This document shows, one piece after another, positions 1,968 through 24,215 of a stretch of DNA of 32,000 bases (positions are counted from its first letter, which is position 1; each line of letters opens with the position of its first letter). The position numbers were made by a program, and so were the translations under genes. Below the pieces are notes generated by a model. That model was not told the DNA's origin. It made no database searches and saw only the letters and a program-made list of their open reading frames with translations. Origin of the DNA: Dickeya solani IPO 2222 (GTDB lineage Bacteria; Pseudomonadota; Gammaproteobacteria; Enterobacterales; Enterobacteriaceae); the NCBI RefSeq assembly GCF_001644705.1, contig NZ_CP015137.1:4080001-4112000 (forward strand), read 5' to 3'.

Positions 1968-2043
1968 TGGCTCCTCTGACTGGACTCGAACCAGTGACAT
2001 ACGGATTAACAGTCCGCCGTTCTACCGACTGAACTACAGAGGA
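1968..2043 (-). tRNA. asnT: tRNA-Asn (anticodon GUU)
   Basis: The reverse complement reads tcctctgtagttcagtcggtagaacggcggactGTTaatccgtatgtcactggttcgagtccagtcagaggagcca. This matches my recollection of E. coli tRNA-Asn and includes the CCA end. Confidence 0.95.
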
Positions 2044-2152: not shown

Positions 2153-2944
2153 TCATTCTGATGACAAATCAACCTGTGGTTGGCTCGTTTGCCAGTGCTG
2201 CAAACGCTCCAGCGGGCTTTGGCGGTAAAAACCGCAAAAGAGCTGGTATACCGCCGGGAAGCGCTCGGCTAGCAGATCTGGCGCGCTGAAAAAATACTCG
2301 GACAGCACGGCGAAGCACTCCGCCGGATCGGCTGCGGCGTAAGGGTCCATACTGGCGGCATCTTCTCCTACCAGCTCTATTTCTTCACGCAGTTCCTCCA
2401 TCGCGGCACGCAGTACCTGCTCCCAACGCGCTACGTAACGCAGCGGCATGGCGGGAACGCCGGACGGGCGCTCGTTGCCGCGCATATCCAGCTTGTGCGC
2501 GACTTCGTGGATAATCAGATTGAATCCGGAAAGATCAAATGAATCCTGAATCTCCAGCCAGTTCAGCACAATAGGCCCCTGATCCCAGCTCTGACCCGAT
2601 TGTACGCTGGGGCCGCTATGCACCAGACCAAATTCATCCATCCATTCGCCATTGACCATAAAGGGTTCGGGGTGAATCAGAACATCATGGAAGCCGTCGA
2701 GCCATTCAATACCCAGTTCCAGCACTGGGAGCGCAAACAATAGCGCAATGCGCTGCGCCATTAGCTCAGTCAGCACCAACCCCTGTAGCGGTACCAGACG
2801 TTTCTGGCGCAGAAACTGCCTGGCCAGCATGACGATATGCTGGCGTTCAGTCTCTGCCAGCGGTGTTAACAGCGGGATTGACAGCGCCTGCTGCCAGTCC
2901 GAAAAAGCGTCGGGGGTAGGGGATTTCCATTGCCACTTCATCAT
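2153..2944 (-). CDS. mtfA: Mlc titration factor A / zinc-dependent peptidase MtfA
   Basis: Colinear with E. coli MtfA (MMKWQWK... versus MIKWPWK...; [29 protein letters not shown], zinc motif [27 protein letters not shown]). The start is trimmed from the 2977 ORF start to Met12. Confidence 0.9.
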
Positions 2945-3038
2945 GGTGTTGCTCGCTAAGTCATCACTTGAATTCAAAGGCGTCGGTTTGTTCTTGTTAA
3001 CATGCCATAAAACAGGGCATTATAAGCACCACTTTTGT

Positions 3039-3128
3039 GGAGAGATGCCGGAGCGGCTGAACGGACCAGTCTCGAAAACTGGAGTAGGGGCAACTCTACC
3101 GGGGGTTCAAATCCCCCTCTCTCCGCCA
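3039..3128 (+). tRNA. serU: tRNA-Ser (anticodon CGA), serU-like
   Basis: ggagagatgccggagcggctgaacggaccagtctCGAaaactggagtaggggcaactctaccgggggttcaaatccccctctctccgcca. It has a long variable arm and a CCA end, and is nearly identical to E. coli serU as I recall it. Confidence 0.95.
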
Positions 3129-3767
3129 CTATTCAATAAGTTACATCATCACTTGTCTGTGACTTTCCTCTATGTTGGTATATAAACTTGGTATATCGGC
3201 ATCATAAATCTGAATAACCACTCATCTTCGGTGATTAACGGCAGGTCTAATGTTGGTGAGACACAGACTTTTCTGTCGTACGTTACAATCTGCGCCTCTG
3301 GGTTTTATCCGGTGCTGCTTTTAGCCGCCGGTCAGTGTACGCGTGCTTTTGTCCGCAGTTTCCCGTTTCTCTCTGCTGAATAAATAACTTCAAACAGTTC
3401 CAATTCTGCCTCTTGCACCCACTCAAGATCTCTAATATCACCACGCTTTACGGTAAAGGTATGAAATTCATAATGGATGGCAGGGCCGGTGCAGCATGGT
3501 TATGGATAGCTATCCACCAAGTCATGGGCTCGACGCAGTAAAAGCACGGTGTTTCGCCAACGGCGGCCTATTCATGTAACGGTACCTCAGCACCGTTTCC
3601 GCCATAGCGACTTTGGTCACCAGGGATTGCTCTCAGGGGTCTGATTGATCGCTCGCTGCGGTGTTGATATTAATTAAACATATTATTTATTTTCATTTTA
3701 ACAAAATGATTTTATGAGGTTGGTATAGTTCAATGCGGATCAGAATAATTGTGCTAGCCTGAAGGGG

Positions 3768-3793
3768 AAAAATCCCGCCTAGGCGGGATTTTT
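3768..3793. terminator. Bidirectional rho-independent terminator (aaaaatcccgcc-ta-ggcgggattttt)
   Basis: A perfect palindrome flanked by an A-run and a T-run. It lies 14 nt downstream of the stop of the 3807..4958 gene on the minus strand. Confidence 0.8.
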
Positions 3794-3806: not shown

Positions 3807-4958
3807 TTACGTTCGTTTCTTTCTGAAGTTCTCGTCGTTTTGCACGTACCGCAGGGAATCCAGTATTAACCCAGATATTCTTAATATGTCTTCTGGATTT
3901 TCTATATAAATTCTATTGCTGTCACACTCAAGGCCGGCTCTATTTATTTCATTGCTAATTATTGGTGTGATATCAATAGGCAGTTGAATTGACGATCGGG
4001 TCTTTTTATCGTGATATCGAACTAGCCAGCGGTTTGCTTTTCCTTGAAACAATACTGAGTAATAGGATTCGGTGTCCTTTGCTTGTAGGTCGTGTTCAAT
4101 CCCAATGATTGAGACTACCTTCTCAAACAGTACACGTTCATTGTATGTGGTTACAATGTTAGGGTTATCCGGGTCAATAATGTCCGAGCGTTCATCGGGT
4201 ACAGTAAGATCTTTGTTTTCGTTGTGGTTATCTTCTACTGCCGTTGGCTTAGAAGATAATCCAGATACAACCATGGCGCTGACGGATCGCTCAACAGCCT
4301 GCCTAACCAGTGGAGTTATTGAATCAATAAATCTTTGATTTAGTTGTCTTCCGATGTTGGCTCTGCCTGCAACATAGCGTACAAAATCCGCATCGACATC
4401 TCTAAGGCTGGCGCTGATTACTTTCACGAATGCTGATATGTACACACTCTCTTCAGCTAACGTTCGTAAAGCTTCTGGTTTAAATTTGTCATGCCTAAAT
4501 CGAAATAATTGCTCTGCGTCAGACTCTGTAATGTCATCCATTCTTATTCGTAAGAACGGGGAGGGATCCATTATATTTTTTTCTTTCAAGTCTGTGAAAA
4601 ACCGCCATTCAACCCCATTTGTTATGGCTGATATAGTAACCTCTGGGGTGGAGTTGAAGTACCTGGATAATTGAGGACAGTGATTATCTATCTTCTCTCG
4701 GTATGATTTTGCTTCAATAAACATAACCGGAACACCCTGACAAAAAAGAGCATAATCCACTCTTTCTCCAGCCTTAGCCCCAGGGAAGTCAGCCCCATAT
4801 TCCGCTCTTACCTTTTGCGGGTCGTATGCGTTGAACCCCAATATGTCTAAGAATGGTAAGATCAAGGCTTGCTTTGTCGTTTCCTCGGTTGTGCAGTGTT
4901 CGCAGACTTTTTTGACATGCTCAATGTGCCCCTTGAGTCTAGCCTTAAAATTTTCCAT
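3807..4958 (-). CDS. 383-aa protein: N-terminal HsdR-N-terminal-like PD-(D/E)xK nuclease core fused to an unrecognised C-terminal domain
   Basis: ORF 3807..4979, start moved to the ATG at 4958, which is preceded by a strong SD (tgGGAGGGatggATG). The N-terminus (TKQALILPFLDILGF...ERVDYALFCQGVPVMFIEAKSY...ITNGVEWRFF) fits the HSDR_N / Mrr-cat type restriction-endonuclease fold. The putative catalytic residues are D68 and E82-x-K84, encoded at 4707-4757. I recognise no motif in residues ~140-383. Confidence 0.75.
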   Translation of the reverse strand: MENFKARLKGHIEHVKKVCEHCTTEETTKQALILPFLDILGFNAYDPQKVRAEYGADFPGAKAGERVDYALFCQGVPVMFIEAKSYREKIDNHCPQLSRYFNSTPEVTISAITNGVEWRFFTDLKEKNIMDPSPFLRIRMDDITESDAEQLFRFRHDKFKPEALRTLAEESVYISAFVKVISASLRDVDADFVRYVAGRANIGRQLNQRFIDSITPLVRQAVERSVSAMVVSGLSSKPTAVEDNHNENKDLTVPDERSDIIDPDNPNIVTTYNERVLFEKVVSIIGIEHDLQAKDTESYYSVLFQGKANRWLVRYHDKKTRSSIQLPIDITPIISNEINRAGLECDSNRIYIENPEDILRISGLILDSLRYVQNDENFRKKRT

Positions 4959-4991
4959 CCATCCCTCCCAGAAAAGCAATAATTAGCAGTG

Positions 4992-5381
4992 TTAATTTTC
5001 CTGCTTAAACCGACCTCGCAAGTATTTTTCGACATAATTATCGATTTCTTTTAATCGAACTTGAAATAAGTCGATCATTCTATCCTGCTCAGAATCAGGC
5101 AGTTGGTTAAAGAGCTCCAGTAGCCTTTTTTCTTTTGGTTTAAGCCCGTTTTCTTCGTCAACTTCTTCACCCAGCAACCAACCAACCGATACACCTAAAG
5201 CATCAGAAAGTTTTAACGCTGAACTCTTACCTATGGTGCCTCGTGAAAACCAGTTATTAACTGATTGGGGGCTGACACCAGCAATTCTGGCCATCTCCGC
5301 TTTAGAGATACCTTTTGCCCTCATCAATTCGCACAGCCGTTTAATTTGCGGGTGTTCTACTTGGTGCGTTTTTCCTCTCAT
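4992..5381 (-). CDS. XRE / phage-CI-like helix-turn-helix transcriptional regulator (129 aa)
   Basis: HTH segment IKRLCELMRAKGISKAEMARIAGVSPQSVNNWFSRGTIGKSSALKLSDALGVSVGWLLG, followed by a helical C-terminal tail. It sits 33 nt upstream of, and co-oriented with, the nuclease-like gene. Confidence 0.85.
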   Translation of the reverse strand: MRGKTHQVEHPQIKRLCELMRAKGISKAEMARIAGVSPQSVNNWFSRGTIGKSSALKLSDALGVSVGWLLGEEVDEENGLKPKEKRLLELFNQLPDSEQDRMIDLFQVRLKEIDNYVEKYLRGRFKQEN

Positions 5382-5420
5382 ATCACGATATTAAACCAAA
5401 AGTTTATAGCCAGACAATTT

Positions 5421-5450
5421 CATAATGTTGTCGATAATATAAACATTATG
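5421..5450. promoter_or_regulatory. Candidate operator: 9-bp perfect inverted repeat in the HTH gene promoter region
   Basis: cataatgtt (5421-5429) and aacattatg (5442-5450) separated by 12 nt. The spacer contains -10-like hexamers on both strands (gataat / tatatt). It lies 40-70 bp upstream of the HTH start at 5381. Confidence 0.45.
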
Positions 5451-5808
5451 ATTTTTTGATTTTCCCTACTAGAATATTCATGTGTGAGCACTTGAAAGGG
5501 CTATTAGGAAGGTGGCTCAGCAATAAAATTGGCTGACAGTCTTCGTCAATCGTTATCGGGAAAATCGTTATAACGCGCAATCTCTCTCGAGCAGGCTAGT
5601 TCGATTCACACGGTATCAGTGATGCACTGGAAGCGTACGAACGCCACATCCAAATCATCCAGGATGCCGTGCTATTCGATATGGCTGTGCCATCAGGGAT
5701 AGTAGGGCCCCGTCACAACAAAACCTTACCCGCTGTCATCAGAAACTGACATTCAACCGATTATGCTGGCGTATCTGACCCGATTACTGGCTGCAATGGA
5801 GGTTACCA

Positions 5809-6048: not shown

Positions 6049-6603
6049 TTAACCGTGCAGGCGACGGGTAATTTCAGCGACGCGCGCACCGTACAATTTA
6101 GCAGTTTCCAGATCGCCTGCCGGAATCGCATCCGCGCCGGCGTCGGACGGAGACTGAATCAGCGCGCCGCCGGAACCACCGAGGTTGTTGGCGTCGTTGC
6201 GGGTGGAAGCCAGAGCGTTAGCCGGTGGTTGACCCAGGCTGACCCAGATGCCGCCGTGCTGTGCAGCCAGCGTTTGCAGATAAATCAGCGTCACCTGCTT
6301 GTCGCCGTTCAGGCTAGCGCTGTTGACGAAACCGCCGAATACTTTGTCCTGCCAGCCGCGGGTGAACCAGATTTTAGAGCTGGCGTCGGCGAATTTTTTG
6401 AACTGCCAGGGCGCGTTGCCCATGTAGGTCGGCGCACCGAAAATGATGCCGTCTGCGGCGTTCAAGGTTTCCCAGTCCGCGTCGGTGATATCGCCATTGC
6501 TGTCGATAGCGATCAGGCTGGCTTTGGCGCTTTCCGCAACCAGTTCAGCGATAAGTTTGGTGTGACCGTAGCCAGAATAGTAGACAACTGCAATCTTGCT
6601 CAT
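6049..6603 (-). CDS. Flavodoxin-fold NAD(P)H:quinone oxidoreductase family protein (WrbA-like)
   Basis: 184 aa. MSKIAVVYYSGYGHTKLIAELVAE and ADGIIFGAPTYMGNAPWQFKKFAD match the WrbA/flavodoxin FMN-binding signature regions. SD: ttGAGGaaatgctATG. Confidence 0.85.
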   Translation of the reverse strand: MSKIAVVYYSGYGHTKLIAELVAESAKASLIAIDSNGDITDADWETLNAADGIIFGAPTYMGNAPWQFKKFADASSKIWFTRGWQDKVFGGFVNSASLNGDKQVTLIYLQTLAAQHGGIWVSLGQPPANALASTRNDANNLGGSGGALIQSPSDAGADAIPAGDLETAKLYGARVAEITRRLHG

Positions 6604-6633
6604 AGCATTTCCTCAAGTATGGCCAGATAAAAA

Positions 6634-6658
6634 CAGAACTTAAAAATGGTAAGTTCTG
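6634..6658 (-). promoter_or_regulatory. 9-bp perfect hairpin plus U-run immediately upstream of the WrbA-like gene (attenuator, terminator or operator)
   Basis: The minus strand reads cagaactta-ccatttt-taagttctg followed by tttttat. It ends about 30 nt before the start codon at 6603. Confidence 0.4.
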
Positions 6659-6838
6659 CTCAGGTATGGCGACATATTATCGCGTCAAATTTGCATAAAC
6701 AATGAATTACCTGAAAGTGCCTAGGTTACTTCGCGGTAACCAGATGGCGGTAATATGATCAGGGATAATAATGGAGTGCAGTGGCACCGCACCGTTTTAA
6801 AATAGATTATGAAGAATATGAATAAGTGACTCGGTTTT

Positions 6839-6877
6839 ACACGCCTCCTCTGGAAAAATACGTCAGAGGAGGCGTGT
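6839..6877 (-). terminator. 14-bp perfect stem-loop just downstream of the GT2-TPR gene
   Basis: acacgcctcctctg (6839-6852) and cagaggaggcgtgt (6864-6877), located 10 nt after the stop at 6887. There is no T-run on the minus strand, so intrinsic-terminator function is uncertain. Confidence 0.5.
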
Positions 6878-6886
6878 CGGATCGAC

Positions 6887-7948
6887 TCAATGAACCAGAC
6901 GTTGGATGCCGTCGCGCGCCAGCGCGTAATCACCACATTTTTGATAGAACTCCAGCGCTTTCTGCTTCATGCCGACACACTCCAGAATAACACCAATATT
7001 ATAATTGGCTTTATAGGTGTTCACGCCTTCTTTATTCCCAGGCGGCATCTTTGTACAGTGGGTAAATAAGTCAACTGCATTTTGAAGTTGACCATTATTC
7101 ATCAAAATTAATGCCTTTAAAAATATAAAGTCAGTGGACGAATAATGAGATTCATAATGAAGAATATCCATAGCTGTCGCATAATCGCCTTGATTGATCA
7201 GCGCATAACCATAGGTTTCGACCAGGTCTTCAGTATATTCGTACGTGAAGTTGGTTTCAAAACGCAAAGCTTGCCGGAAATAGTCAATCGCAGAGGAATA
7301 GTCTCGCTTCAGGTAATAACTTTTTCCCAGTTGAAACAGCAGGTAAGGATCGTCTGGCTGCATCTCAAGCGCCTGTTTCAGCAGGGTGATATTTCGTGAA
7401 ACTTTATCGGTTTCCTGCAATATTTCTTTTTTATACCCCACATGGTTCAGCCGTATCGGGGCGGTAAATGAGGTGATGGGCGACGTGCTGATTTCCCGCG
7501 GCGTAACCTGCTCATGAATAATACCGCTGTAATGGTAACGATCTTTATGGAATAAACGGTTAATCGATTCCCGGACGGTGGTGGTATCGGTTCCTTCGTC
7601 CAGATAATTGAGGCGTTCCACGCGGCCAATCGCCTGCGGGTGTGTTTTTATCAGTGCGTATAGTGCATCGATATCAATGGATTCGATTTCTTCATCGGCA
7701 TCGATCACTAGTACCCAATCGTGACGGGCATAATCCAGCGATGCATTGCGCGCGGCGGAGAAATCAGCTACCCATTCGAAATCATGGATATTGGTTGTGA
7801 ACTGGCCGGCGATAGCCCTGGAATTATCGGTGGAGCCGGTATCGACAATAACGATATCGTCAAAATGGGCGGCGATGGACGCCAGCGTGCCGGCAAGATG
7901 CCTGGCTTCGTTTTTGATTATCATGCAGACGGAAATCATTATTTTCAC
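6887..7948 (-). CDS. Family 2 glycosyltransferase with a C-terminal TPR repeat domain
   Basis: The N-terminus (ISVCMIIKNEARHLAGTLASI...DDIVIVDTGSTDNS...VLVIDADEEI) shows GT-A/GT2 features, including a DxD-like DAD. The C-terminus has TPR-like repeats (PYLLFQLGKSYYLKRDYSSAIDYFRQAL..., YGYALINQGDYATAMDIL, YNIGVILECVGMKQKALEFYQKC). The track start at 7948 is GTG; an ATG at 7939 is an alternative. Confidence 0.85.
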   Translation of the reverse strand: MKIMISVCMIIKNEARHLAGTLASIAAHFDDIVIVDTGSTDNSRAIAGQFTTNIHDFEWVADFSAARNASLDYARHDWVLVIDADEEIESIDIDALYALIKTHPQAIGRVERLNYLDEGTDTTTVRESINRLFHKDRYHYSGIIHEQVTPREISTSPITSFTAPIRLNHVGYKKEILQETDKVSRNITLLKQALEMQPDDPYLLFQLGKSYYLKRDYSSAIDYFRQALRFETNFTYEYTEDLVETYGYALINQGDYATAMDILHYESHYSSTDFIFLKALILMNNGQLQNAVDLFTHCTKMPPGNKEGVNTYKANYNIGVILECVGMKQKALEFYQKCGDYALARDGIQRLVH

Positions 7949-8055
7949 CCGCCGGAAAAAAGTTTGATGATGTCAAGGCGACCAGAGGAAACCGTTGACG
8001 AAACATGAATGCGTCAGTCTTGCCTTATTCACCAAACGATGAATGCGGCCGGTGG

Positions 8056-8451
8056 TCACAATAACGGAACCGGGCGCCCTTCGTCATTGACCGCCACAAA
8101 ATTAAACTGACCGGTAATCACTTTGGTACGGCCTTCGGCGTACATCTGCTCCAGATACACCGACACATCCACCGTCAGGCTGGTGCGTCCGACCCGGCTG
8201 ACCTGCCCGACCAGCTCCACAATGGTGCCTGAAGGGATAGGGGTACTGAAGTTGATCTTTTCGGTGGAGACGGTGACCAGCGGTTTATGGCAGAAACGGG
8301 TGGCGGTAATAAACGAGATTTCATCCATCCACGCCAGTGCGGTGCCGCCAAACAGCGTCGAATGGTGGTTGATATTGGTGGGGAAGACCACTTTGGCGAC
8401 CCGGGTGATGGAATGCTGAATACGCTCTTCAATAATTAAGGATTGCGTCAT
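8056..8451 (-). CDS. Hotdog-fold acyl-CoA thioesterase (YciA/BFIT-like)
   Basis: 131 aa. FPTNINHHSTLFGGTALAWMDEISFITATRF...VTVSTEKINFSTPIPSGTIVELVGQVSRVGRTSLTV resembles the YciA-type 4HBT thioesterase pattern. Confidence 0.8.
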   Translation of the reverse strand: MTQSLIIEERIQHSITRVAKVVFPTNINHHSTLFGGTALAWMDEISFITATRFCHKPLVTVSTEKINFSTPIPSGTIVELVGQVSRVGRTSLTVDVSVYLEQMYAEGRTKVITGQFNFVAVNDEGRPVPLL

Positions 8452-8521
8452 GATACGGCGACCTTGTGGATAATCAGAACACTCTCATCTTACATCAATT
8501 CTATCCCCGGCGGGACTCCGC

Positions 8522-9280
8522 CTAGGTAGCCTGCCCGCAGATGTCGCAGTCCGGATTTTTCGGCAATCGCATTTCGCGAAATTGCATCGTCATGGCGTCA
8601 AACAGCAGCAGTTTCCCCGCCAGCGGCTGACCATATTGTGTCAGCAGTTTGATGGTTTCCAGCGCTTGCAATGAGCCGATCACGCCGACCAGCGGCGCCA
8701 TGACGCCGGCTTCGACGCAGGTTAGTGCGCTGTCGCCAAACAGACGGCTGAGACAGCGGTAGCAAGGCTCCTCCGGCTGATAGGTAAAGACGCTGATTTG
8801 CCCCTCCATCCGAATCGCCGCGCCGGACACCAGCGGCGTTTTGTGCATAAAGCAGAGACGGTTGAGCCGATCGCGAATCGACACGTTGTCGGTACAATCC
8901 ACCACCGCATCGTGTTGCATCACTAGCGCCAGCAGCGCGTCATCGTCCAGATTGTCCTGAACCGGCGTGATATGCACATGCGGATTGATACCCTGCAAGG
9001 TCAGGCGGGCGGATTCCACCTTCGGCATGCCGATACGATCATCGCGGTGCAGCACCTGACGTTGCAGGTTGGACAATGAAACGGTATCAAAATCCAGCAG
9101 GGTCAACCGGCCGACACCCGCTGAGGCCAGATACTGTGCGGCGGCGCAACCCAGGCCGCCCAGCCCAACTATCAATACCTGCGCGGCTTTCAGGCGTTCC
9201 TGCGCATCAAAATCGAATCCGCGCAGGACGATTTGCCGGTTATAGCGCAGGGTTTCTTCATCGGTCAGTTCAGGCAACAT
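8522..9280 (-). CDS. moeB: Molybdopterin-synthase adenylyltransferase MoeB
   Basis: 252 aa. YNRQIVLRGFDFDAQERLK...VLIVGLGGLGCAAAQYLASAGVG..LTLLDFDTVSLSNLQRQ plus C-terminal CxxC pairs (CYRC, CDIC). The start overlaps the moeA stop (TGATG). Confidence 0.95.
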   Translation of the reverse strand: MLPELTDEETLRYNRQIVLRGFDFDAQERLKAAQVLIVGLGGLGCAAAQYLASAGVGRLTLLDFDTVSLSNLQRQVLHRDDRIGMPKVESARLTLQGINPHVHITPVQDNLDDDALLALVMQHDAVVDCTDNVSIRDRLNRLCFMHKTPLVSGAAIRMEGQISVFTYQPEEPCYRCLSRLFGDSALTCVEAGVMAPLVGVIGSLQALETIKLLTQYGQPLAGKLLLFDAMTMQFREMRLPKNPDCDICGQAT

Positions 9281-10515
9281 CAGTAGTGACTCTGCAACAG
9301 CGGGTTAAACGGTTCAACGTCCACCCATTCGCCTGCTTCCACCCGGGCGCGTTCGGCTTCCAGCACGATGAAGCAGTTGCCCTGGCTGAATGAACTGAAC
9401 ACATGGGACCCCTGATGCCCGGTGGTGCGTACTTCCAGGTCGCCTTCGGCGGTGCGGGCCAGAATGCCGCGCTGGAAGTCCAGACGACCGGGCGATTTCT
9501 TCAACGGCGTCGCCGTCTTAACCCGGAAACGCGCCGGCAACGACCAGTCGGTATGGCCGGATAAACGCGCCAGCAACGGCTGCACCAGTTGATAAAAGGT
9601 GACGGCGGCGGACACCGGGTTACCCGGCAGCCCGCAGAACCAGGCGTGATTCAGCTTGCCGAAGGCAAACGGCTTGCCGGGCTTGATCGCCAGTTTCCAG
9701 AAGTGGATATCGCCCAGCGTTTCCAGCATCTGTTTGGTGTAATCCGCTTCACCTACCGACACGCCGCCGCTGCTGATTACCACGTCGGCAGCTTGATCCG
9801 CCTGCTGAAACGCCTGACGCAGCGCGGCCGGGTCATCACGCACGATGCCGAGGTCGATCACGTCATAGCCCAACTGCTCCAGCATCAGACGTACGGCAAA
9901 GCGGTTGGTATCGTAAATCTGCCCTGCCTGTAATGGCTCGCCGACCGGCTGCAATTCGTCGCCGGTGGAAAACAGCGCTACCCGCAAACGGCGCATCACG
10001 TCGACCGCGCTGATACCGAGCGACGCCAGCAGCGGCAATTCTGCCGTGCCCAGTCGGGTGCCGGCTGGCAGCACCTGGGCCTGACGGCGGATATCCTCAC
10101 CGGTGCGGCGGATGTTTTGGCCCGGTTTAACCGCACGGGTGAAATGGACCCGGCCATCGGCATCGCTTTCCGTGTCCTCTTGCATCACAACCGCGTCGGC
10201 GCCGGTGGGAATCGGCGCGCCGGTCATGATGCGGATGCAACTGCCCGCCGGCCAGTCGGCGTCAAACGGCGCGCCGGCAAACGCTTTTCCCGCTACCGGC
10301 AACGGCTGGCCGGTCAGTTCATGGCAGCGCACGGCGTAGCCGTCCATCGCAGAATTGTCGAACGGGGGCACATCAAGGGGGGAGGTCACCGCTGTCGCCG
10401 TGATGCGACCGGCGGCCTGATAAATCGACACCGTTTCTGTGGCGGTGAGTGGTGAAACCTGCGCCAGCATGGTTTGCAGCGCCTGTTCCAGAGAGAGTAA
10501 ACCCGAAGTATCCAT
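9280..10515 (-). CDS. moeA: Molybdopterin molybdotransferase MoeA
   Basis: 411 aa from the ATG at 10515 (GGAG lies 5 nt upstream), the same length as E. coli MoeA. Motifs include [23 protein letters not shown] and [11 protein letters not shown]. The track ORF extends 17 codons further upstream. Confidence 0.95.
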
Positions 10516-23282: not shown

Positions 23283-23955
23283 ACGCTGGTTTGTTACCGG
23301 AACCGACACCGAAGTAGGCAAGACCGTCGCCAGCGTGGCGCTGTTGCAGGCCGCCCGTCACGCCGGATACCGTACCGCCGGGTATAAACCGGTGGCCTCC
23401 GGCTGCGAGGTGACGCCGCACGGCATCCGCAACGGCGATGCCTTACAGTTGCAGGCCAACAGCAGCGTGACGCTGCCTTACGACGCGGTCAACCCGTTGG
23501 CGTTTCTGGAGCCGACGTCGCCCCATATCGTCAGCGCCGCGGAAAACCGACCGATTGCCTTTTCCACCCTCAGCGGCGGTTTGCGCGCGCTGGAACGGCA
23601 GGCGGACTGGGTGCTGGTAGAGGGCGCCGGCGGCTGGTTTACGCCGCTTTCCGGGCGCCATACCTTCGCCGACTGGGTGCGGGAAGAGACGCTGCCGGTG
23701 ATTCTGGTGGTGGGGGTGAAGCTGGGGTGCATCAACCACGCCATGTTGACGGCGCAGGCGGTGCAGCAAGCCGGTTTGCGTCTGGCGGGCTGGGTCGCCA
23801 ACGTTATTCAGCCGCCCGGCCGGCATCATCACGCCTACCTGCAAACGTTGCAAGAGCGGATTCCGGCGCCGTTGCTGGGGGAAATCCCTCATTTATCCGA
23901 GCCAATTCAGCAGGATATTGGCGATTACTTAAACATCACTTTACTGAGAGGTTAA
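23275..23955 (+). CDS. bioD: Dethiobiotin synthetase (GTG start)
   Basis: [27 protein letters not shown] compares with E. coli MSKRYFVTGTDTEVGKTVASCALLQAA. It overlaps the bioC stop. Confidence 0.95.
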   Translation: MTERWFVTGTDTEVGKTVASVALLQAARHAGYRTAGYKPVASGCEVTPHGIRNGDALQLQANSSVTLPYDAVNPLAFLEPTSPHIVSAAENRPIAFSTLSGGLRALERQADWVLVEGAGGWFTPLSGRHTFADWVREETLPVILVVGVKLGCINHAMLTAQAVQQAGLRLAGWVANVIQPPGRHHHAYLQTLQERIPAPLLGEIPHLSEPIQQDIGDYLNITLLRG

Positions 23956-24215
23956 CGATTCTGAGTGAATGTTGCGTGAATCGTGGCTTTTTCCCTTCTT
24001 CTGGTTGAAATCGATAGAAAAAACCATCTTGAAAACGAGTGTTAAATCCACTGGGCAGCAGTTTTTCTTCTTGCTAAGTCTGTGTCATTTAGCACTTTTT
24101 TTTATAATGATCGCCGGGTCAAACATGGAAATCTTGTTTAAAAGCGCCTTGCGCTGTCGTGGCGGCAAAAGACGGTGAAAGACGGCAATACAGGAGGCGC
24201 GGGCGCTTGTGGGAG

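Follow-up and report, generated by a model that had tools for sequence, protein, structure and literature searches.

We analysed a 32,000-nucleotide (nt) stretch of the Dickeya solani IPO 2222 genome (NZ_CP015137.1, positions 4,080,001 to 4,112,000), referred to below as the window and numbered from its first letter. The subject is a cassette of two neighbouring genes, gene 1 encoding a helix-turn-helix (HTH) protein and gene 2 a nuclease-like protein. Comparison with phages and prophages showed that a lambda-like prophage, similar to Klebsiella phage KpF5, once sat at the 3′ end of tRNA-Ser(CGA) and that its immunity region survives as this cassette, the rest of the prophage having been lost. 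The origin of the cassette as a prophage remnant, with gene 1 as the repressor, is considered very probable. The complete proposal, a prophage immunity remnant with a nuclease that is expressed in the lysogen and cuts foreign DNA, seems fairly probable. The original prediction, made from the letters of this DNA, had read the pair as a new two-gene module. That reading was not supported, and gene 2 instead is a member of a nuclease family already known by name. The cassette and its parts are as follows, with protein positions given in amino acids (aa).

3039..3128, plus strand: tRNA-Ser(CGA), located with ARAGORN; its 3′ part from about 3100 is the predicted attachment core (attB/attL).
3129..3767, no strand: spacer of about 640 nt from the tRNA to the terminator, with no recognisable remnant.
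3768..3793, no strand: intrinsic terminator with perfect 13-nt arms, flanked by A5 and T5.
3807..4958, minus strand: gene 2, 383 aa, a predicted stand-alone HsdR-N-type PD-(D/E)xK nuclease of the PHROG 4225 family.
3810..4157, minus strand: gene 2 aa 268-383, conserved alpha/beta domain with the motifs TT-x-EE ... KDT-x-x-Y ... W-x-x-R.
4158..4259, minus strand: gene 2 aa 234-267, acidic linker predicted to be disordered, with an isoelectric point (pI) of 4.1 and gapped, variable alignment columns.
4260..4538, minus strand: gene 2 aa 141-233, helical domain conserved in the family, with AlphaFold2 helices at 145-235 and predicted local distance difference test scores (pLDDT) of 82-94.
4539..4958, minus strand: gene 2 aa 1-140, predicted nuclease domain with E53, D68, E82-x-K84 and Q96-x3-Y100, assigned from Pfam, invariant columns and Foldseek.
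4963..4969, minus strand: Shine-Dalgarno sequence GGGAGGG of gene 2, inside the 33-nt intergenic gap.
4992..5381, minus strand: gene 1, 129 aa, XRE/cI-family HTH protein and prophage repressor orthologue, assigned from Pfam, PHROG and orthologue identity.
5420..5451, no strand: operator-like inverted repeat with 10-nt perfect arms and an N12 spacer.

The prophage origin was traced from the tRNA end of the cassette and from the order of its genes. Window positions 3100-3163, at the 3′ end of tRNA-Ser, align with positions 23900-23963 of KpF5, beside the integrase of that phage (64 nt, 85.9% identity), and Citrobacter phage Chris1 has a 37-nt match of 100% to the same tRNA end. The 3′ part of tRNA-Ser thus appears to be the attachment core of KpF5-like and other lambdoid phages. 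On the spacer side, only the first 71 nt were matched in the blastn comparison with phages. KpF5 carries an 81.5% identical homologue of gene 2 directly after, and co-oriented with, its 'Rac prophage repressor'. Read from attP through int to the gene 2 homologue and then the repressor, the order and strands of KpF5 equal those of tRNA-Ser, gene 2 and the HTH gene in the window. The spacer at 3129..3767 corresponds to the slot that the integrase and the early-left genes fill in intact relatives. In Escherichia coli PCN061, racR is followed by the homologue, IS1 and parB and, further on, by int, tRNA-Ser, mtfA and tRNA-Asn, with partial RusA and HTH pseudogenes nearby. This prophage is a half-decayed intermediate at the same chromosomal site as the window, where the site is marked by two more genes.

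1968..2043, minus strand: tRNA-Asn, located with ARAGORN, a marker of the tRNA-Ser/mtfA/tRNA-Asn site.
2153..2977, minus strand: MtfA-like core gene, identified as an open reading frame (ORF) with Pfam Peptidase_M90, a second marker of the site.

The base composition of the cassette also sets it apart. Its GC content is 0.40-0.44, against 0.55-0.60 in the surroundings, and the GC content at third codon positions is 0.39-0.41, against 0.63-0.70 in neighbouring genes. A low-GC islet abutting tRNA-Ser(CGA) at 3039-3128 had been noted before and is indeed present. Its interpretation as a landing site for defence cargo has to give way to that of a decayed prophage at a phage attB.

Gene 1 had been described as an XRE/CI-type HTH protein of 129 aa, in agreement with its matches to Pfam HTH_3 (3.8e-10), Phage_CI_repr (6.9e-6) and HTH_26 and to the repressor families PHROG 8, 4 and 3. 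The score against the NCBIfam DicA subfamily (1.1e-11, 44.6 bits) is under the 101-bit cut-off of that model. The protein is of the short DicA-like type, without an S24 peptidase domain and with a C-terminal helical extension, and its DNA is similar to that of the 'prophage repressor' of phage mEp237. Because gene 1 is 64% identical (3e-58) to the 128-aa repressor of an intact lambdoid prophage of Pectobacterium aroidearum, which stands in the same arrangement, it is best regarded as a prophage repressor orthologue and not as a dedicated controller. The P. aroidearum orthologue faces a Cro/YdaS-YdaT pair. The divergence of the repressor gene from a cro-like gene is seen through this orthologue, as in the window itself the cro side has been deleted. 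When the regulatory regions of the window and the P. aroidearum prophage were aligned, no conserved operator was found; the two repressors appear to differ in immunity specificity. The orphan repressor in D. solani may give immunity to homoimmune phages.

The arrangement of the two genes suggests a single transcription unit. As first described, they are co-oriented on the minus strand with a gap of 33 nt; the ATG of gene 2 is at 4958-4956 and its Shine-Dalgarno sequence GGGAGGG at 4969-4963. Since the gap is too small for a separate promoter, the genes are probably co-transcribed. The terminator at 3768-3793 was confirmed to have perfect 13-nt palindrome arms, and its RNA hairpin, with a folding energy of -17.1 kcal/mol (z = -3.99), is followed by U5. 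It appears to close the repressor-nuclease transcription unit, and it could act in both directions because the palindrome is flanked by A5 and T5. Upstream of gene 1, the perfect inverted repeat reported at 5421-5450 with 9-bp arms exists but is longer, with 10-nt perfect arms at 5420-5429 and 5442-5451 (TCATAATGTT-N12-AACATTATGA). The start codon of gene 1 lies 39 nt downstream of this repeat, which is the sole perfect CATAATG-N16-CATTATG site in the window and is presumed to be an O_R-type binding site for the repressor. No recognisable Shine-Dalgarno sequence was found upstream of the gene 1 ATG (5381), a feature reminiscent of the lambda cI mRNA from P_RM, which is leaderless. We propose that the repressor would bind the repeat at 5420-5451 and regulate its own promoter, driving a gene 1-gene 2 transcript that would run to the terminator.

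Other sequences resembling regulatory signals were seen in and near the cassette. A copy of CATAATG-N16-CATTATG with two mismatches lies at 3469-3498, downstream of the terminator, which in an intact phage would be an O_L-type position. This second operator-like site was rejected as not above chance, the same count being reached in 11/100 shuffles. Inside gene 2, at 4598-4570 on the minus strand, there is a near-consensus sigma-70 match (TTCACA-17-TATAAT, 11/12). The -10 hexamer of this match coincides in part with the codons for the conserved residues N128-I129-M130, and the match was dismissed as a promoter, coding coincidence being its most likely origin. In the gene 2 family, many database proteins start at M130; these are probably truncated gene calls, and an internal start giving a nuclease-less C-terminal isoform of gene 2 is possible. 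In the linker-coding part of gene 2, two perfect 10-nt arms flank a spacer of 12 nt (4228-4237/4250-4259). This inverted repeat has the 10-N12-10 geometry of the upstream operator-like repeat with a different sequence, and is probably due to chance.

In intact lambdoid prophages, the gene 2 homologue fills the slot that rexA/rexB have in lambda. A copy with 77% identity lies 22 nt after cI (HTH_3 and Peptidase_S24) in four different lambdoid prophages of Citrobacter. On one side of cI, YdaS/Cro and then YdaT are transcribed divergently from it; on the other, cI is followed by the homologue, kil/ydaE, exoVIII, recT, xis and int, with gaps of 350-450 nt after the homologue. The P. aroidearum prophage has a 90% identical copy in a Citrobacter-like arrangement behind its 128-aa HTH gene. 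Streptococcus phage IPP25 has the order repressor, small ORF, homologue and integrase, and in Clostridium phage CWou-2020a a small ORF lies between upstream HTH regulators and the homologue. In both of these phages the homologue is in the lysogeny module behind the repressor. The recurrent large neighbours in 80 bacterial loci encode portal, terminase, tape-measure, DnaB and similar proteins. Mu-type portal and AAA_22 genes are among the neighbours at several Burkholderiales/Rhodocyclales loci, so that the gene 2 family also resides on Mu-like prophages. Because gene 2 would be co-transcribed with the repressor, has its own Shine-Dalgarno sequence and is followed by a strong terminator, its product is expected to be made in the lysogenic, non-induced state, like those of rexA/rexB behind lambda cI.

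The family of gene 2 was established by profile searches. NCBI lists a D. solani protein with 100% identity to it under the name 'type I restriction endonuclease', and PGAP gives the same name to the family in E. coli, where it occurs in 33/5426 complete genomes. As the protein has 383 aa and lacks a motor domain, this name is misleading. The proposed check by profile hidden Markov models gave scores above the cut-offs for both Pfam HSDR_N (5.2e-15, 56.3 bits against a gathering cut-off of 25.1, aa 63-128) and HSDR_N_2 (2.1e-6, 28.2 bits against a cut-off of 25, aa 25-127). Residues 1-375 matched positions 1-357 of the 357 positions of the PHROG 4225 'endonuclease' profile at E 1.5e-147. When 1.84 billion cluster representatives were searched exhaustively with HMMER, the family comprised 3577 clusters (50% identity) at E <= 1e-3, of which 339 reached E <= 1e-30; the majority are 340-400 aa long and align over residues ~4-330 or further. 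There were 1336 clusters at 90% identity (E <= 1e-5), and IMG/VR contained at least 560 relatives. The family ranges over Proteobacteria, Firmicutes, Actinobacteria and Bacteroidetes. The view that gene 2 is an undescribed fusion was therefore abandoned, since its full-length architecture is that of PHROG 4225, is found in thousands of clusters and has been named by NCBI.

Conservation within the family argues for a nuclease. In an alignment of 34 sequences reaching down to 27% identity, E25, K29, G41, E53, D68, Y69, E82, K84, Q96 and L97 are invariant, as are Y100, G115, N128, M130, P134, F135, A168 and E274. T270, T271, D295, Y299, W311 and R314 are at least 90% conserved, and all are present in the window protein. 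The combination of a D...E-x-K core with Q-x3-Y is the RecB/HsdR-type signature. The restriction-endonuclease-like core predicted around D68, E82 and K84 (nt 4707-4757) was thus upheld, both by the invariance of these residues in the 34 sequences and by the HSDR_N score above the gathering cut-off. By these sequence criteria the N-terminal domain appears to be a real HsdR-N-type PD-(D/E)xK nuclease, and we infer that gene 2 is catalytically active. A catalogue of PD-(D/E)xK proteins places the HSDR_N group with COG4748 and COG2810 (PMC3424549), and COG4748 was counted as 'restriction endonuclease' among Tn7 cargo genes (PMC8649781).

The structure of gene 2 was modelled with AlphaFold2 from the 34-sequence alignment, with a pLDDT of 89.1. 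The nuclease domain was modelled with alpha-beta-beta-beta-alpha-beta elements. The acidic linker recognised earlier is predicted to be disordered, with pLDDT < 50 at residues 234-251, and its length and sequence vary in the family. The C-terminal ~120 residues had been regarded as an unrecognisable addition. Contrary to this, they are conserved family-wide and, when modelled alone, give a confident fold (pLDDT 95.2, predicted template modelling score 0.86). A Foldseek search of the PDB with the whole model returned nothing at E <= 1e-3. Its top matches for the N-terminal part were HsdR 3h1t (prob 1.0, 140 columns), the HsdR of EcoR124I and BpuSI, with 3ijm and 9y1l as other restriction-endonuclease-like matches. 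The structural check of the proposed fold therefore found the nuclease domains of HsdR and BpuSI, but all of these matches have E > 1e-3. The second group of matches comprised the C-terminal DNA-binding domain of T4 MotA and proteins of the YdhG/YjbR type, presumably through the C-terminal part of gene 2.

The C-terminal domain was also searched alone. Against the PDB, Foldseek matched the MotA C-terminal domain 1kaf_A (E 0.016, prob 1.0) with template modelling (TM) scores of 0.47-0.52 and YdhG/DUF1801 with TM scores of 0.51-0.56; against BFVD, the best matches were MotA proteins of T4-like phages at E 0.006-0.03. The T4 MotA double wing and YdhG/DUF1801/YjbR are thus the best structural matches of this domain in both databases, at TM ~0.5, 9-17% identity and E > 1e-3, with no sequence-level relation to gene 2. 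None of 28 C-terminal domains scanned matched a Pfam family, and a PDB sequence search with the whole protein and the C-terminal-domain profile found nothing meaningful. A search with that profile for other architectures returned only short fragments of gene 2's own family, and no SRA, PUA/EVE, YTH or winged-helix modification-reader fold was recognised in gene 2 by Pfam, PDB or Foldseek. Judged from the models, the C-terminal domain is probably a DNA-binding or reader module, and its likeness to a double wing is treated as a lead and not as a finding.

Taken with its neighbourhood, this architecture suggests how gene 2 may act. It would be a stand-alone DNA endonuclease composed of the nuclease domain, the helical domain and the linker-joined C-terminal domain, and it would cut incoming foreign DNA, leading to restriction of superinfecting phages or superinfection exclusion. 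No hsdM, hsdS, helicase or methyltransferase gene lies beside gene 2 in the window or in ~20 Pfam-annotated homologous loci, and the recurrent large neighbours of the 80 bacterial loci include no such partner either; on this point the original prediction was right. N6_Mtase, HsdM, Methylase_S and ResIII are likewise absent among 25 listed of the 51 neighbour families of 30 cluster representatives, and a crude screen for pairs of methyltransferase motifs was positive in 0/252 large neighbouring ORFs. Because there is no cognate methylase, gene 2 would have to recognise a feature absent from the host or be activated by infection. The target might accordingly be chosen by the C-terminal domain, or the nuclease might respond to an infection cue, and host DNA would be spared where it lacks the target feature (e.g. 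modified bases, or a phage-specific DNA structure or sequence). Dependence on modification is purely conjectural and one of several possibilities. A role of gene 2 in defence or exclusion leans slightly to the probable side.

The fate of gene 2 after the loss of the surrounding phage points in the same direction. In Pectobacterium polaris, a 94% identical gene 2 is intact beside tRNA-Gly/Cys/Leu, while the HTH gene is reduced to frameshifted fragments (at 9690-9960 of that locus). In Brenneria, gene 2 is intact and only the last ~10 codons of the HTH gene are left (9930-10000 of its own locus). P. polaris and Brenneria form a decay series of the repressor upstream of an intact gene 2. Photorhabdus has the homologue alone, the HTH gene having been deleted. 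In three assemblies of Yersinia pseudotuberculosis, only cI (HTH and S24, 239 aa) and the nuclease are left among core genes; this remnant is at 7214-9158 of its loci, and Fic/DUF4172 and HTH-AAA_28 genes lie a few kb away. Counting D. solani, at least five lineages thus hold an intact orphan copy. Those of D. solani and P. polaris are at different tRNA sites, and between them the nonsynonymous rate (dN) is 0.027, the synonymous rate (dS) 0.96 and dN/dS 0.028; for other pairs dS is saturated. Since gene 2 is intact where the HTH gene has decayed or been deleted, it is tolerated without a regulator of the gene 1 type. That gene 2 is intact beside a decayed repressor and has been kept independently by five or more lineages suggests that the host benefits from it.

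Several observations weigh against the proposal as a whole. The window contains no attR copy, that is, no direct repeat of the tRNA end, and tblastn with all ORFs of the fetched prophage loci found no remnant of a phage gene in the window apart from the tRNA-adjacent bases. Because attR and phage-gene remnants are absent from the window, the deletion history of the prophage is reconstructed by comparison; the missing attR fits a deletion that removed it. Upstream of gene 1, no minus-strand match emerged from a sigma-70 consensus scan, and sigma-70-like sites in that region are as numerous as expected by chance, which did not bear out the promoter region placed there by the original prediction. 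The MotA-like match of the C-terminal domain is borderline (E 0.006-0.03, TM ~0.5, none at E <= 1e-3). Dam- or C5-type methylases are encoded in further modules of several intact host phages, as is common in lambdoid phages, and a split restriction-modification relation in the phage context is possible; the orphan loci have no methylase nearby. The low dN/dS may in part stem from a phage-borne phase of gene 2. In PADLOC-DB v2.0.0, no family matched gene 2 at E <= 1 and gene 1 had only generic HTH matches, so that the suggested search of defence models gave no support. A survey of the literature on HSDR_N, DUF450, COG4748 and lysogeny-module nucleases found no functional study of the gene 2 family. 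HepS (Nature 2026, PMC13043305) was considered relevant by title only and was set aside as an unrelated HEPN protein.

An alternative that we consider unlikely is that gene 2 serves the phage and not defence, as an early-left recombination or replication nuclease, as an aid to induction or in the degradation of host DNA. It draws on the lambdoid relatives, in which the homologue lies between the repressor and kil/exoVIII/recT, and on the Q-x3-Y and RecB-type motifs, which also occur in recombination nucleases. The spacing of the genes argues otherwise, as the gap from the repressor stop to the homologue is 8-28 nt in many loci and leaves no room for an early promoter and operator. A strong terminator follows gene 2 in the window, and gaps of 350-450 nt follow the homologue in the intact prophages. 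In the Gram-positive phages, moreover, the homologue is between repressor and integrase, in the lysogeny module. The intact state of gene 2 after the loss of other phage genes in at least five lineages is also hard to explain by a benefit to the phage.

The original prediction itself, a dedicated two-gene defence or toxin module in which the HTH protein represses a toxic nuclease, is now quite improbable. In its favour, the two genes point the same way across a gap of 33 nt and share a terminator, an operator-like repeat is present, Y. pseudotuberculosis keeps just repressor and nuclease, and PADLOC shows weak matches of the HTH protein to HTH components such as RmrA and CapH. These matches, however, span the generic HTH only, and the HTH protein is orthologous to repressors that face cro/cII-type genes. 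The neighbourhood check did not find a conserved HTH-nuclease pair. An HTH-type gene is immediately upstream in 39/78 viral loci (from IMG/VR) and 20/80 genome loci (at species level), counts that are lower bounds from a locally iterated profile. S24, HTH_3, HTH_31 and HTH_19 are the commonest Pfam families in the upstream ORFs. There are at least three types of repressor partner (DicA-like of 128-129 aa, RacR-like of 158 aa and cI-S24 of ~230-240 aa), and elsewhere the upstream ORF encodes a non-regulator such as tail Dit, tail T, a Q antiterminator or a RES-domain protein. The pairing of gene 1 and gene 2 is thus not obligatory. As the nuclease is intact where the HTH gene is pseudogenised or deleted, it is not lethal without the regulator. 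The functional claim hence survives in one part, a defence-type role being still the most plausible, but not in the other, that of a tightly repressed toxin under a dedicated controller. In two bacterial loci we observed a co-oriented upstream ORF with a RES domain, the toxin of RES-Xre toxin-antitoxin (TA) systems, and no repressor.

Very improbable is the view that gene 2 is left over from, or is a lone subunit of, a type I (or type IIG/ISP-like) restriction-modification system whose HsdM/HsdS are encoded elsewhere. The Pfam HSDR_N match, the NCBI/PGAP name and the fold matches to the nuclease domains of HsdR and BpuSI speak for it. Against it, the protein has 383 aa, no helicase or translocase domain and only HSDR_N matches, and it scores 18.3 bits with the NCBIfam type I endonuclease model, which has a 729-bit cut-off. 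The annotated loci have no hsdM/hsdS neighbours, and the motif screen found no methyltransferase in the 252 ORFs. The 340-400-aa architecture is conserved in the 339 deep clusters, so gene 2 is not a truncated HsdR. With no motor domain, and no hsdM/hsdS in the examined loci, a type I remnant was rejected.

Finally, a type II TA system with the XRE-HTH protein as antitoxin and the PD-(D/E)xK protein as toxin is hardly credible: a small HTH gene does stand upstream of the nuclease, HigA and YdaS models give weak matches and some orphan copies have TA genes in their vicinity (PIN/PhdYeFM in Brenneria, ParDE in Photorhabdus), but the arguments against the two-gene module apply here too, the partners are swapped freely, the 'toxin' persists alone under purifying selection and the HigA and YdaS matches are under their cut-offs.

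With a lysogen-expressed nuclease as the favoured interpretation, the closest positional parallel is lambda cI-rexA-rexB. Like rexA and rexB, gene 2 is directly downstream of the repressor gene and co-oriented with it, with a terminator before the early-left genes. It is unrelated to RexA/RexB in sequence (no PADLOC match); these are a sensor and a membrane channel, whereas gene 2 would be a single soluble nuclease, to which an exclusion role is assigned by analogy. BstA of Salmonella phage BTP1 is another exclusion gene that is expressed in the lysogen and lies beside the repressor, and it too has no sequence relation to gene 2 (no PADLOC match).

Parallels in the nuclease itself are found among restriction enzymes. 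Gene 2 shares HSDR_N/HSDR_N_2, D...E-x-K with Q-x3-Y and the fold matches with the HsdR nuclease domain (EcoR124I; Vibrio vulnificus 3h1t). HsdR has a superfamily 2 (SF2) motor and the partners HsdM and HsdS, whereas gene 2 has none of these, would be unable to translocate DNA and has a helical domain and a C-terminal alpha/beta domain in addition. McrA on e14 and GmrSD on CT596 are prophage-borne type IV restriction enzymes without a methylase. These share with gene 2 the form of a single-polypeptide, prophage-borne nuclease that is tolerated by the host without a cognate methylase, and the architecture of a nuclease plus a separate putative DNA-reader domain, but they belong to a different nuclease family. 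Type II restriction-modification systems controlled by C proteins also have a small HTH gene upstream of the nuclease and a palindromic operator (putative here). They differ in having a methyltransferase, of which there is none here, while gene 1 is a 129-aa phage repressor orthologue and its pairing with gene 2 is not conserved. PHROG 4225, or in NCBI terms 'type I restriction enzyme HsdR N-terminal domain-containing protein', is gene 2's own family under a bioinformatic name only; it may correspond to COG4748.

The locus as such is ordinary, a decayed prophage that keeps its repressor and one accessory gene. The gene 2 family is noteworthy in being large, spread over several phyla, mis-named by pipelines, absent from PADLOC and retained after phage loss, and it is a reasonable candidate, inexpensive to test, for a new restriction or exclusion function carried by a single gene. 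As a potato pathogen, D. solani is of economic importance, and phages are being explored for its biocontrol. If the proposal is true, a host-encoded anti-phage nuclease would matter in practice for such biocontrol. As a more tentative extension, and one that we regard as rather doubtful, PHROG 4225 could be a widespread single-protein anti-phage nuclease in the rexAB slot, directed by a MotA-like reader to a feature of foreign DNA such as hypermodified bases and repeatedly domesticated by bacteria, D. solani among them, after prophage decay.

Other parts of the window carry further signs of mobile DNA. Beside tRNA-Asn (1968-2043), a split P4-type integrase lies at 524-1806 on the minus strand as two overlapping ORFs, one of 139 aa with Arm-DNA-bind_3 and one of 316 aa with Phage_int_M/Phage_integrase. 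A DUF736 gene is at 57-368 on the plus strand, and an RHS/PAAR toxin locus is found further along the same region. With its P4-type integrase, this region resembles another degraded island, separate from the cassette and located at the neighbouring tRNA. On the other side of the cassette, a second low-GC stretch (6600-7400, GC 0.40-0.44) coincides with a glycosyltransferase family 2 and TPR gene (6887-7948, minus strand), possibly another horizontally acquired gene.

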